Shown here in pieces: positions 792 to 4,398 of a DNA stretch of 4,399 bases. This DNA is from a virus. Lineage: Duplodnaviria; Heunggongvirae; Uroviricota; Caudoviricetes. Numbering within the stretch: the first letter of the stretch is position 1; each line of letters starts with the position of its first letter. The position numbers and the translations under genes are program-made. The notes below the pieces were generated by a model, which was not told the DNA's origin, did not search any database, and was given only the letters and a program-made list of their open reading frames with translations. The DNA is taken from the IMG/VR virus record IMGVR_UViG_2778261570_000013. One strand, written 5' to 3'.

Positions 792-841
792 GCGGGTGCT
801 TGAGGCTATCTGCCTCGGGCATGAACACCAACGGCAGATAG
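792..841 (+). other. hok mRNA 5' leader elements: tac-like 5' segment (792-805) and a 9-bp perfect inverted-repeat hairpin (806-814 / 833-841, 18-nt loop)
   Basis: CTATCTGCC at 806-814 is the exact reverse complement of GGCAGATAG at 833-841. Segment 792-805 is complementary to 1168-1182. From memory, the motif GCUUGAGGCU.UCUGCCUC resembles the 5' end of plasmid R1 hok mRNA; this was not aligned. Confidence 0.5.
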
Positions 842-962
842 AGAAAAGCCCCAGTTAACATTACGCGTCCTGCAAGACGCTTAACATTAATCTGAGGCTC
901 AATCCATGCTGAACACATGTAGGTTAGCCTCTTACGTGCCGAAAGGCAAGGAGAAGCAGGCT

Positions 963-1118
963 ATGAAGCAGCAAAAGGCGATGTTAATCGCCCTGATCGT
1001 CATCTGTTTAACCGTCATAGTGACGGCACTGGTAACGAGGAAAGACCTCTGCGAGGTACGAATCCGAACCGGCCAGACGGAGGTCGCTGTCTTCACAGCT
1101 TACGAACCTGAGGAGTAA
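963..1118 (+). CDS. hokD: Hok/Gef family type I toxin, 51 aa (small membrane-depolarising toxin)
   Basis: Translation MKQQKAMLIALIVICLTVIVTALVTRKDLCEVRIRTGQTEVAVFTAYEPEE has the Hok hallmarks: N-terminal transmembrane helix, then TRK.LCE.R.R.G..EVA.F.AYE. It matches my recollection of E. coli HokD/RelF. AAGGAG at 948-953 lies 9 nt before ATG 963. The track ORF 906..1118 is an in-frame upstream extension. Confidence 0.88.
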   Translation: MKQQKAMLIALIVICLTVIVTALVTRKDLCEVRIRTGQTEVAVFTAYEPEE

Positions 1119-2909: not shown

Positions 2910-3269
2910 ATGCGTATAGAGTTTGTTTTGCCTTATCCGCCAACGGTGAACACCTACTGGCGACGTCGTGGCAGCACATATTTTGTATCAAAAACCGGTG
3001 AGCGTTATCGCCGTGATGTGGCGCTTATTGTTCGCCAGCAGCGGCTGAAATTAAACCTGTCCGGAAGGCTGGCGATAAAGATCATTGCAGAGCCGCCGGA
3101 TAAGCGCCGTCGTGACCTGGACAATATTCTGAAAGCACCGCTGGATGCACTGACGCATGCGGGGCTGCTCATAGACGACGAGCAGTTTGATGAAATTAAT
3201 ATTGTGCGCGGTCAGCTCGTTCCTGGTGGTCGGTTGGGGATAAAAATCACAGAACTGGAGTGCGCATGA
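2910..3269 (+). CDS. rusA: RusA-type Holliday junction resolvase, 119 aa
   Basis: Translation contains PDKRRRDLDN and KAPLDALTHAGLLIDD, matching the RusA catalytic-core motifs (compare DLP12 RusA PDRRRRDLDN / DALTKAGFWLDD, from memory). GAGG at 2900-2903 lies 6 nt before ATG 2910. Confidence 0.9.
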   Translation: MRIEFVLPYPPTVNTYWRRRGSTYFVSKTGERYRRDVALIVRQQRLKLNLSGRLAIKIIAEPPDKRRRDLDNILKAPLDALTHAGLLIDDEQFDEINIVRGQLVPGGRLGIKITELECA

Positions 3270-3955
3270 ATAACCAGTATTTACAGTTTGTGCGTGAACA
3301 GCTCATTATCGCCACCGCCGATTTGAGTGGAGCAACAAAAGGTCAGCTTGAAGCCTGGCAGGAGAATGCCATGTTTGATACCGGGCGTTACAGGCGTAAA
3401 AAAATCCGGTACCGCGATGAAGTGACCGGAAAAATGATCACGCTGGATAATCCACCAATCCCGGGGAAACAATCGCTGGCGAAGGGGACGTCAATTCCTC
3501 TGGTCAGTCCGGTTGAGTTTTCGACATCATCGTGGCGGCGGGCTGTTCTGTCTCTTGAAGAACATCATAAAGCCTGGTTGTTGTGGTGTTACAGCGGGAG
3601 TATTTGTTGGGAATATCAGATCGCGATAACACAGTGGGCGTGGAATGAATTTAATACTCAATCCGGTACCAGAAAAATTGCAGGGAAAACGCAGGAACGC
3701 CTGAAAAAATTAATCTGGCTGGCGGCGCAGGCAGTAAAAGCAGAACTTTTTGGTGGGGAAGGTTATGAATACCAGGAGCTGGCATTACTGGCGGGAGTGA
3801 CAACTAAAAACTGGTCCAAAACATTTACTCGTCACTGGGTTGCAATGAAACACATTTTTCAACGACTGGATAGTGAGGCTTTATTGTTTGTAATGAGAAC
3901 ACGTTCAAAACAAAAGACAGCATTTTCAAAGCAAAGTGTTGCAAAAGTAGATTGA
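3266..3955 (+). CDS. Putative late-gene antiterminator, Q-like (QuuQ-type), 229 aa from ATG 3266
   Basis: It sits directly after rusA (the rusA stop 3267-3269 overlaps the start) and directly before a promoter/terminator pair and a tRNA cluster, which is the canonical lambdoid Q position. GGAG at 3257-3260 lies 5 nt before ATG 3266; the track's 3260 start is a GTG. The family call is by context and weak recollection, not a motif match. Confidence 0.6.
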   Translation: MNNQYLQFVREQLIIATADLSGATKGQLEAWQENAMFDTGRYRRKKIRYRDEVTGKMITLDNPPIPGKQSLAKGTSIPLVSPVEFSTSSWRRAVLSLEEHHKAWLLWCYSGSICWEYQIAITQWAWNEFNTQSGTRKIAGKTQERLKKLIWLAAQAVKAELFGGEGYEYQELALLAGVTTKNWSKTFTRHWVAMKHIFQRLDSEALLFVMRTRSKQKTAFSKQSVAKVD

Positions 3956-3967
3956 AAGGCATATATT
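3939..3967 (+). promoter_or_regulatory. Candidate late promoter (PR'-like): -35 TTGCAA 3939-3944, 17-bp spacer, -10 TATATT 3962-3967
   Basis: Hexamers read by eye. It overlaps the 3' end of the Q-like gene, as PR' does in lambda. A -10-like TGATATTTT at 3979-3987 lies just downstream of the predicted start. Confidence 0.4.
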
Positions 3968-4017
3968 TCATGCAAATCTGATATTTTGCCGATTTTGTAC
4001 GTGATGGCAAAAGCAAA

Positions 4018-4047
4018 CAAAACCCGCCCACAAGCGGGTTTTGTTTA
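4018..4047 (+). terminator. Intrinsic terminator (tR'-like) about 45-70 nt downstream of the candidate late promoter
   Basis: An 11-bp perfect stem (4017-4027 ACAAAACCCGC with 4034-4044 GCGGGTTTTGT) enclosing loop CCACAA, with a U-rich 3' arm and TTTA tail. The symmetric A-tract/T-tract makes it potentially bidirectional. Confidence 0.65.
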
Positions 4048-4128
4048 TGCCACTTATCTCGGATAGACATGGTGAATGCGCTGGTGGAGGAAGTGAGGGT
4101 AATTTTTAACCAGGTGATTCTTGAATGC

Positions 4129-4157
4129 TTGCAACATTGATTTCGTAACGTTATTAT
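4129..4157 (+). promoter_or_regulatory. Candidate sigma70 promoter for the tRNA cluster: -35 TTGCAA 4129-4134, 17-bp spacer, -10 TATTAT 4152-4157, GC-rich discriminator
   Basis: Hexamers read by eye. The predicted start is 2-3 nt before the first tRNA 5' end, and CCTGCGCTC follows the -10, as in stringently controlled stable-RNA promoters. Confidence 0.45.
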
Positions 4158-4166
4158 CCTGCGCTC

Positions 4167-4242
4167 GGCCCTTTAGCTCAGTGGTGAGAGCGAGCGACTC
4201 ATAATCGCCAGGTCGCTGGTTCAAATCCAGCAAGGGCCACCA
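4167..4242 (+). tRNA. tRNA with anticodon CAU, Ile2 (lysidine) type, ileX/ileZ-like
   Basis: Hand-folded cloverleaf: acceptor GGCCCTT/AAGGGCC, D-stem GCTC/GAGC, anticodon loop CTCATAA, T-loop TTCAAAT, encoded CCA. It is near-identical to my recollection of E. coli ileX. Confidence 0.85.
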
Positions 4243-4243
4243 A

Positions 4244-4320
4244 CCGCCACTAGCTCATCAGGAAAGAGCGTCAACCCTTTAAGTTGAGTGTGCGAGGTTC
4301 GAGTCCCCGGTGGCGGTCCA
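4244..4320 (+). tRNA. Atypical tRNA-like gene, formal anticodon UUU (Lys-type) with C at position 33 and one T-stem mismatch; identity uncertain, possibly a pseudo-tRNA
   Basis: Acceptor CCGCCAC/GTGGCGG pairs 7/7, D-stem GCTC/GAGC, anticodon stem TCAAC/GTTGA 5/5 with loop CCTTTAA, T-loop TTCGAGT, T-stem CGAGG/CCCCG 4/5, encoded CCA. Only 1 nt separates it from the previous tRNA. Confidence 0.5.
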
Positions 4321-4322
4321 GT

Positions 4323-4398
<76 letters not shown>

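Follow-up and report, generated by a model that had tools for sequence, protein, structure and literature searches.

The window analysed here is a stretch of 4,399 nucleotides from a virus of the Caudoviricetes (IMG/VR record IMGVR_UViG_2778261570_000013). It carries a tRNA operon in which the gene at 4244-4320 has the anticodon UUU and, at the otherwise nearly invariant position 33, a C in place of U. By alignment, this gene, hereafter the Lys-type tRNA, is an allele or paralogue of argN, the tRNA-Arg(UCG) gene of Shiga toxin (Stx) phages, with a rebuilt anticodon arm, and we consider it very probable that it derives from argN and is under selection for its structure. What it may do is given more tentatively: the reading we favour is that it serves as a structurally selected spare lysine tRNA, charged with lysine, whose non-host body would let it evade the nucleases that attack host tRNALys.

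ARAGORN reports 4244-4320 as a 77-nt cloverleaf, tRNA-Lys(ttt), and the Rfam tRNA model (RF00005) matches 4244-4317 in the same register (44.4 bits, E 2.4e-07, cut-off 29). The initial annotation, made from the letters alone, had described a good cloverleaf with C33, a UUU anticodon, an acceptor starting with C and a T-stem mismatch, and all of these are found in the gene. It had also proposed ARAGORN scoring as a check, and named a canonical identity in a different fold register as the outcome that would overturn its reading. Any such register or identity is ruled out, since Rfam and ARAGORN agree with the register first proposed, and an alternative register with a canonical loop does not exist in this gene. 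The fold has the 7/4/5/5-bp stems of the RF00005 cloverleaf and scores above its threshold, with 20 of 21 pairs Watson-Crick, while its score lies below those of both neighbouring tRNAs (Table 1). The acceptor CCGCCAC/GTGGCGG opens with C1-G72, and is followed by T8 and A9, a D stem GCTC/GAGC and the D loop ATCAGGAAA. In the anticodon arm, TCAAC (4271-4275) pairs with GTTGA (4283-4287) around the loop CCTTTAA (4276-4282), of the usual length of 7 nt without an additional base: C32, C33 (4277), U34-U36 (4278-4280), A37 and A38. The T stem CGAGG/CCCCG contains A51·C63 (4295/4307), which cmscan likewise marks as non-standard; the discriminator is U73 (4317), and CCA is encoded at 4318-4320. The elongator core is kept (U8, A14, the D-loop GG, the T loop TTCGAGT and CCA), and it is the C at 4277 that departs from a canonical elongator with U33. 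The cloverleaf comes to -25.5 kcal/mol, the same value as the minimum computed for this RNA; the computed minimum-free-energy fold is not the cloverleaf for this gene, nor for thrU, lysT or the ileZ-type tRNA, so that the calculation is uninformative.

Apart from its anticodon the gene does not resemble tRNALys(UUU). It has U73 rather than A73, and its 59% identity to Escherichia coli K-12 lysT is no closer than that to unrelated tRNAs. On the other hand, it aligns over its full length and without gaps to argN, with 82-84% identity. The two also share their location: the first tRNA of the cluster is identical to ileZ of the Stx-phage clusters, and the Lys-type tRNA lies directly after it, in the slot of argN. 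The initial annotation had stated that Stx-type lambdoid phages carry ileZ-argN-argO here and that the second and third tRNA genes of the window differ from that set. This is correct and the comparison holds; the third gene is indeed of Thr type, being an exact copy of host thrU. What the initial annotation did not notice, and what alignment to phage tRNAs showed, was the homology to argN together with the compensatory changes in the anticodon arm.

This homology alters the meaning of several traits that had been listed as non-canonical. C33 and UUU are specific to the Lys-type tRNA. C1-G72 and U73 occur throughout argN, as do a 9-nt D loop with A20 and a weak 51-63 pair. This pair is A·C in the window and A-U in one Lys-type allele; of the argN alleles, most have G·U and three have G-C. 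Low scores are also common to the family: argN of phage F349 reaches 43.0 bits, below the Lys-type tRNA, and that of WGPS8 reaches 53.6 bits. None of these shared traits can therefore be taken as a sign of decay in the Lys-type tRNA. In Stx lambdoid phages (e.g., AP012530 and AP012540), argN has the same scaffold, including the T loop TTCGAGT and the encoded CCA, is likewise located 3' of the antiterminator gene Q, and has modest Rfam scores of 43-54 bits. The two differ in the anticodon loop, CUUCGAA in argN and CCUUUAA here, and the Lys-type tRNA keeps A20 but has U at position 35, without the C35 by which arginyl-tRNA synthetase (ArgRS) would recognise the Arg anticodon of the family. Besides UCG to UUU and U33 to C33, the 30-40 pair is G-C in argN and A-U here, and the 27-43 pair is C-G or U·G in argN and U-A here.

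A donor for the new arm was sought in IMG/VR, where no other tRNA has the anticodon arm TCAACCCTTTAAGTTGA. Six matches have a base other than G before the arm, of which five are not tRNAs according to ARAGORN and one is a further allele of the same family. Recombination with another tRNA was thus rejected as the origin of the arm, IMG/VR having given no sign of it. A search of IMG/VR with the scaffold pattern returned only further argN alleles (UCG, U33) and two Thr tRNAs. The latter, in loci L136 and L175, are tRNA-Thr(UGU) genes with an argN-type D arm and T arm (GCGCGGGGTTCGAGTCCTCG) and with acceptor and anticodon stems that differ from those of argN, which suggests that the argN scaffold is part of a wider lineage of phage tRNAs.

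The argument for structural selection rests on how the two genes differ. Between the window allele and the nearest argN there are 13 substitutions, of which seven fall inside the 17-nt anticodon arm (P of seven or more = 0.008). Three pairs have changed on both sides and are still Watson-Crick, namely 7-66 (U-A to C-G), 27-43 (C-G to U-A, with U·G in some argN alleles) and 30-40 (G-C to A-U). They are the only doubly changed pairs in an alignment of 27 alleles, they separate Lys-type alleles from argN exactly, and 97.9% of the stem cells in this alignment are paired. In simulations with 13 random substitutions of the same number and type, at least three compensated Watson-Crick pairs arose with P = 0.003, and at least 20 Watson-Crick pairs were kept with P = 0.0006. 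With G·U admitted as a pair, the test has little force (P about 0.05-0.07), so the argument depends on the compensated pairs. Within the Lys-type clade the stem substitutions number five, each of them C to U and each preserving its pair; PhiR47_1 adds a sixth stem C-to-U change (C2U), and phage Evi has a C7·A66 intermediate.

Such compensatory remodelling of the anticodon arm argues against a simple decaying pseudogene, at least for the window allele, in which neither loss of pairing or core bases nor unconstrained substitution was found. The strongest rival to our reading is a non-decoding relic or spacer, that is, an argN copy that has lost its Arg anticodon and is kept by hitch-hiking or for the processing of its neighbours, the tRNA shape being needed for RNase P cleavage and 3' trimming of the ileZ-type and thrU tRNAs. 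We regard it as possible, if on the doubtful side. The short spacers are in its favour (1 nt between the CCA of the ileZ-type tRNA and the Lys-type tRNA, and 2 nt from there to tRNA-Thr), as are the low covariance-model score and the allele alignment, in which conservation is highest in the acceptor and T arms. It leaves unexplained, however, why two of the three compensated pairs lie in the anticodon stem, which is not needed for RNase P processing alone. In addition, the low score belongs to the whole argN family, and with its 20 of 21 Watson-Crick pairs the window allele is better paired than its nearest argN relative, that of F349, which has three G·U pairs and the same A·C.

The second line of evidence comes from the distribution of alleles, for which at least 245 copies and at least 27 alleles (10 Lys-type and 17 argN) were sampled from a scan of IMG/VR and other loci. 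C33 occurs together with UUU, A37 and A38 in 105 of 105 Lys-type copies, which answers a question raised in the initial annotation, namely whether homologous prophages keep C33. Their loop varies only at position 32 (U in two copies, A in one). All sampled argN copies have U33, and all have the anticodon UCG except for one singleton allele with GCG. Scaffolds with U33-UUU, U33-UCU, or C33 with a base other than U36 were found neither in IMG/VR nor among 241 million JGI metagenome records, and an exact U33 version of the Lys-type tRNA is absent from 5426 complete E. coli genomes. C33 is thus strictly linked with UUU, in two states between which no intermediates were found. Against a relic this invariance is weak evidence, given the few polymorphisms.

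The Lys-type tRNA is present in 798 of the 5426 complete E. coli genomes (~15%, about one in seven), and the exact window sequence in 279, where PGAP names it tRNA-Lys. Phage records that bear isolate names, namely vB_EcoM-606R7, PhiR47_1 and Evi, have it too. When 185,579 genomes, each representing a species, were searched, only E. coli, Shigella flexneri and one proteobacterial metagenome-assembled genome yielded the scaffold. Many of the copies are damaged. One frequent allele has C4U, U8C and C11U, giving two G·U pairs; another, also frequent, lacks U12 of the D stem (a 1-nt deletion) and is that of the PPompW prophage from E. coli that produces Shiga toxin. PGAP leaves both without annotation, and both escape the Rfam tRNA model even at E up to 10. 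Genomes sampled at even intervals along the ranking suggest that roughly half of the 798 have degraded alleles, and the sister alleles K2, K3 and K4 fit the description of a pseudogene in part. The deposited annotation of phage 606R7, which has the window allele, skips the gene, so that, depending on pipeline and allele, this locus is named tRNA-Lys, left blank or skipped.

For the decaying pseudo-tRNA suggested in the initial annotation, the outcome is accordingly divided: the window allele with its compensated pairs speaks against it, and the degraded alleles common elsewhere keep the idea alive. They bear on the relic or spacer as well, because the D-arm and U8 damage in about half of the E. 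coli copies looks as if only the acceptor/T-arm minihelix counted, as it would for RNase P. At least 11 clusters of PPompW type carry the D-stem deletion, and a sampled record of that prophage has an insertion sequence (IS) element just 3' of the cluster, so decay in these clusters may have followed the death of the prophage, which would take some weight from the argument.

The favoured reading, a spare lysine tRNA, starts from the identity elements of the anticodon. The main determinant of ArgRS is C35, in addition to A20, and those of lysyl-tRNA synthetase (LysRS) are U34-U35-U36. We infer the following course from expression to nuclease resistance. RNase P and 3' trimming would release the tRNAs from the operon transcript; a promoter-like site directly 5' of the operon counts in favour of this reading. 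The switch to UUU would remove recognition by ArgRS and create recognition by LysRS, so that the tRNA would be charged with lysine, probably sub-optimally because of U73. It would then read AAA and AAG. As its body and anticodon stem are unlike those of host tRNALys, without the features that nucleases use, it would persist as a spare lysine decoder. C33, situated at the bond cut by PrrC and RloC, may add to the evasion or be merely tolerated. AAA and AAG are common codons and the host has six tRNALys genes; with these codons so well served, codon supplementation is an unlikely purpose for the Lys-type tRNA. That lysine codons require no extra tRNA is also a point for the relic or spacer. The supply of rare codons does fit the ileZ-type tRNA, argO, thrU and glyT.

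Host tRNALys(UUU) is a target of PrrC, PARIS AriB and P2-Old, and the Lys-type tRNA shares its anticodon. PrrC and RloC cut tRNALys at the 33|34 bond; our literature search found no data on PrrC with C33. PARIS AriB cuts host tRNALys at U36AAUC|A41, and cleavage is abolished by U39A and impaired by A41C and U16C (PMC12409363). At these positions host tRNALys has U16, U39, C40 and A41, and the Lys-type tRNA has C16, G39, U40 and U41. For P2-Old, the classic anti-lambda nuclease, cleavage follows the C in paired CNG motifs (28-30 and 40-42), and tRNALys receives a single cut, after C40; the phage tRNAThr6 escapes P2-Old via changes at the 30-40 pair and position 43 (PMC12445682). The same positions, 30-40 and 43, are those that changed between argN and the Lys-type tRNA. 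Here argN has CAG/CUG and the Lys-type tRNA CAA/UUG, with no C left in the 3' strand; the paired CNG motif of argN is gone, and no intermediates were found in IMG/VR or the JGI metagenomes. From this signature, argN is predicted to be Old-sensitive and the Lys-type tRNA not. The argN genes in loci L003 (1645-1721) and L004 (1622-1698) read C28-A29-G30 and C40-U41-G42, with A37. The anti-nuclease role suggested in the initial annotation thus fits recently published nuclease determinants, and the Lys-type tRNA has substitutions at mapped positions as nuclease-evading tRNAs do; this is a resemblance in sequence, and the role itself would follow only by inference.

A bolder version, which we think unlikely, takes C33 and the remodelled stem as an adaptation, a temperate coliphage having made an orthogonal lysine tRNA out of one for Arg through three linked changes. 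C33 would protect the 33|34 bond, where PrrC and RloC cut, and would free the loop from t6A37, with no U33-A37 pair possible; G30-C40 to A30-U40 would remove the cytosine after which the Toprim nucleases (PARIS AriB and P2-Old) cut. If true, this would be, as far as we know, the first natural elongator tRNA of the bacterial world with C33 as an anti-nuclease device, and some 15% of complete E. coli genomes would have such a tRNA. A further alternative is a decoy or sponge: an uncuttable Lys-type loop that is bound by a tRNALys nuclease or by a tRNA-sensing trigger and titrates it. The anticodon arm is under structural selection, U34-U35-U36-A37-A38 are kept while the base 5' of the PrrC/RloC cut is changed and the C40 of the Toprim cut is gone, and features that weaken decoding, such as C33 and U73, would not matter to a decoy. 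We nevertheless find it improbable, since the tested phage tRNAs offer no precedent (the P2-Old-resistant one replaced the host tRNA without protecting it), since a decoy would have to be highly abundant, to which nothing points, and since AriB also reads D-loop and stem bases that differ in the Lys-type tRNA, which makes binding doubtful.

Several points weigh against the spare lysine tRNA. Neither U73 nor C1-G72 is a trait of Lys tRNAs. Some of the 13 changes may have occurred on the argN side; G39, U41 and C16, three of the four AriB-relevant positions, were inherited from argN. The degradation of roughly half of the copies in complete E. coli genomes indicates that loss of or damage to the gene is tolerated. 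Decoding by tRNALys(UUU) is unusually strongly dependent on t6A37 and mnm5s2U34. C33 reportedly acts as an anti-determinant when bacteria synthesise t6A37 (PMC9654439), and with t6A37 blocked the Lys-type tRNA may decode poorly, which would also suit a relic or spacer. Host thrU tRNA is the foremost target of P2-Old and a prime one of PARIS, and extra host thrU gives no rescue (PMC12445682). The thrU copy of the cluster has the host sequence, and the cluster is therefore not a complete anti-Old/anti-PARIS kit; for the same reason, 100% identity to host thrU, we rejected the copy as an Old-resistant tRNA.

The altered loop might instead be the function. C33 and the lack of t6A37 could change the behaviour of UUU, with frameshifting at A-rich slippery sites such as that of the lambdoid tail-chaperone G/GT, or with a shifted register in which U35-U36-A37 reads ochre codons. 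The strict linkage of C33 with UUU is circumstantial evidence for this, and the tRNA that slips at -1 frameshift sites in E. coli is tRNALys(UUU). No additional base enlarges the 7-nt loop, however, the gene is dispensable in many prophages, and the natural C33 of yeast tRNALeu(GAG), which is functional, has a minimal effect on decoding (PMC13492127); other than in yeast, no functional test of C33 was found in the literature searched. Anomalies at stop codons or in frameshifting were not seen either, though no search was aimed at them. We therefore hold altered decoding to be highly improbable. Its ochre-suppressor form, with a 7-nt loop and nothing in support, was set aside, and is retained within this low-probability alternative only.

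The surroundings of the gene, summarised in Table 1, are those of the late-regulatory region of a lambdoid prophage, with the tRNA operon between the Q/late-promoter region and the lysis genes.

Table 1. Features of the window, with strand and basis of assignment
Feature	Coordinates	Strand	Basis and remarks
hok/sok module	794-1118		Rfam sok 794-968, 113.5 bits; Hok/Gef open reading frame 906-1118
DUF968 protein gene	1851-2897
RusA gene	2910-3269
Antiterminator Q gene	3260-3955		Pfam Phage_antiter_Q, 1.7e-92
Promoter-like TTGCAA-17-TATATT	3939-3967	+	Consensus scan; directly past the end of Q
Hairpin AAACCCGC-CCACAA-GCGGGTTT, then T-run	4020-4046	+	Read from sequence
Sigma-70 promoter-like TTGCAA-17-TATTAT, then G+C-rich stretch	4129-4157	+	~10 nt 5' of the first tRNA
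ileZ-type tRNA, anticodon CAU	4167-4242	+	ARAGORN; Rfam 72.5 bits; PGAP: tRNA-Ile
Lys-type tRNA (argN-derived, UUU, C33)	4244-4320	+	ARAGORN; Rfam 44.4 bits
Remodelled anticodon arm of the Lys-type tRNA	4271-4287	+	Stem TCAAC/GTTGA, loop CCTTTAA
T-stem position 51-63 of the Lys-type tRNA	4295..4307	+	A·C here
tRNA-Thr(UGU), in the place of argO in this cluster type	4323-4398	+	ARAGORN; Rfam 73.8 bits

The consensus scan picked up three promoter-like sites in this region, where shuffled sequence would give 0.5. The one nearest the tRNAs is a candidate for the operon's own promoter. That at the end of Q is a candidate late promoter of PR' type, and the hairpin 3' of it may be a tR'-like terminator, roles that lambdoid gene order suggests; together they occupy the place between Q and the tRNA operon (3939-4048) where PR'/tR' is expected. 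A simple terminator scan did not flag the hairpin, and the Rfam matches over it (isrK, OrzO-P and Phe_leader) are all weak and sub-threshold. Further upstream, the hok/sok genes form a complete type I toxin-antitoxin module in the early-late region of the prophage, whose copy in relatives is named hokD by PGAP. The DUF968 protein has a weak, sub-threshold match to a putative HNHc nuclease domain, at 22 bits where the cut-off is 26.6, and its homologue in E. coli strain A20 is frameshifted.

A near-identical prophage in the same strain A20 has a fourth tRNA (Gly UCC), followed by holin, lysozyme and terminase genes. In full-length relatives (L001, 6224-6377) this fourth tRNA is 100% identical to host glyT and follows the thrU copy, itself 100% identical to E. 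coli K-12 thrU, after a spacer of 3 nt. In the host operon, tyrU and a spacer of ~116 nt lie between thrU and glyT, and the phage seems to have taken over and trimmed part of the host thrU-tyrU-glyT-thrT operon. The ileZ-type tRNA is the best conserved of the cluster, with the same sequence in 112 of the 122 sampled clusters that have it; A27 and C43, at the base of its anticodon stem, are mismatched, and its U36-A37-A38-U39-C40 is the motif around the AriB cut site.

Among sampled loci with the U27 form of the scaffold, the commonest arrangement is ileZ, the Lys-type tRNA, a thrU copy and a glyT copy (at least 82 loci), followed by ileZ, argN and argO (at least 20) and by ileZ, the Lys-type tRNA and argO (at least 11). 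ileZ, the Lys-type tRNA and a thrU copy occur in at least four loci, and the Lys-type tRNA with thrU and glyT copies in at least two. In a further arrangement (at least five loci), ileZ and the Lys-type tRNA precede a thrU scaffold with UUU and a glyT copy. This thrU copy, confined to one lineage, carries A26G and G35U, which give a fully canonical loop CUUUUAA with anticodon UUU and a score of 74.2 bits. PGAP calls it tRNA-Lys, and it is a second switch to UUU that arose independently within this cluster. It is found in L036 (3483-3555) and four other IMG/VR loci and in six complete E. coli genomes (e.g., NZ_CP024232, O6:H16). The neighbouring Lys-type allele is degraded by model score, with its T stem repaired to A-U.

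The purpose of phage tRNAs is under re-examination, as they have been found to replace host tRNAs destroyed by PARIS, retron PtuAB and P2-Old. Nearly all replacement tRNAs tested belong to virulent phages and stay within the amino-acid family of their scaffold. If the Lys-type tRNA is a spare lysine decoder, this picture would extend to temperate lambdoid prophages, which abound in E. coli, and to position 33, and a change of identity from Arg to Lys would be one route to a resistant tRNA. If it is a relic, it would be an ordinary one, held in shape by the processing of its operon.

Phage tRNAs, alloacceptor switches and nuclease-evading tRNAs are all known kinds. The Lys-type tRNA itself is undescribed in the literature searched, where its sequence appears in no paper and no paper carries all three names ileZ, argN and argO. 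Alloacceptor shift by anticodon mutation, from Arg(UCU) to Thr(UGU), was reportedly obtained in E. coli by Saks et al. in 1998. In such a shift the body of one family gains the anticodon, and probably the identity, of another, as would be the case for the Lys-type tRNA and for the thrU copy with G35U; the Lys-type tRNA differs in requiring two anticodon changes, in addition to C33 and the remodelled stem, and its recruitment would be presumed from these changes. Natural C33 is known from eukaryotic initiator tRNAs. As in yeast tRNALeu(GAG) (PMC13492127), the C replaces U33 in an otherwise normal 7-nt loop, but these tRNAs are eukaryotic, and in a bacterial tRNA reading ANN codons the block of t6A37 should matter more for UUU.

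Among the closest parallels are two sets of coliphage tRNAs. The tRNALys(UUU) of phage T5 neutralises PARIS (PMC11464382, PMC12409363) and, like the Lys-type tRNA, is a phage UUU tRNA with non-host bases at 16, 39 and 41 (C16, A39 and C41 in T5; C16, G39 and U41 here). It is a variant of tRNALys(UUU) from a virulent phage, with its resistance to AriB and its necessity for escape shown experimentally, whereas the Lys-type tRNA has an Arg scaffold, C33 and U73, comes from a temperate phage, and is like it at the level of sequence only. In the coliphage tRNAThr(UGU) Thr6 and Thr21, resistance to P2-Old lies in the anticodon stem, at pair 30-40, where the CNG motif is destroyed, and at position 43 (PMC12445682). 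Unlike these, the Thr tRNA of the present cluster is the unprotected host sequence. Thr6 and Thr21 keep their amino-acid identity and shorten the stem, whereas the Lys-type tRNA has switched its anticodon, and its change at position 43 strengthens the stem.

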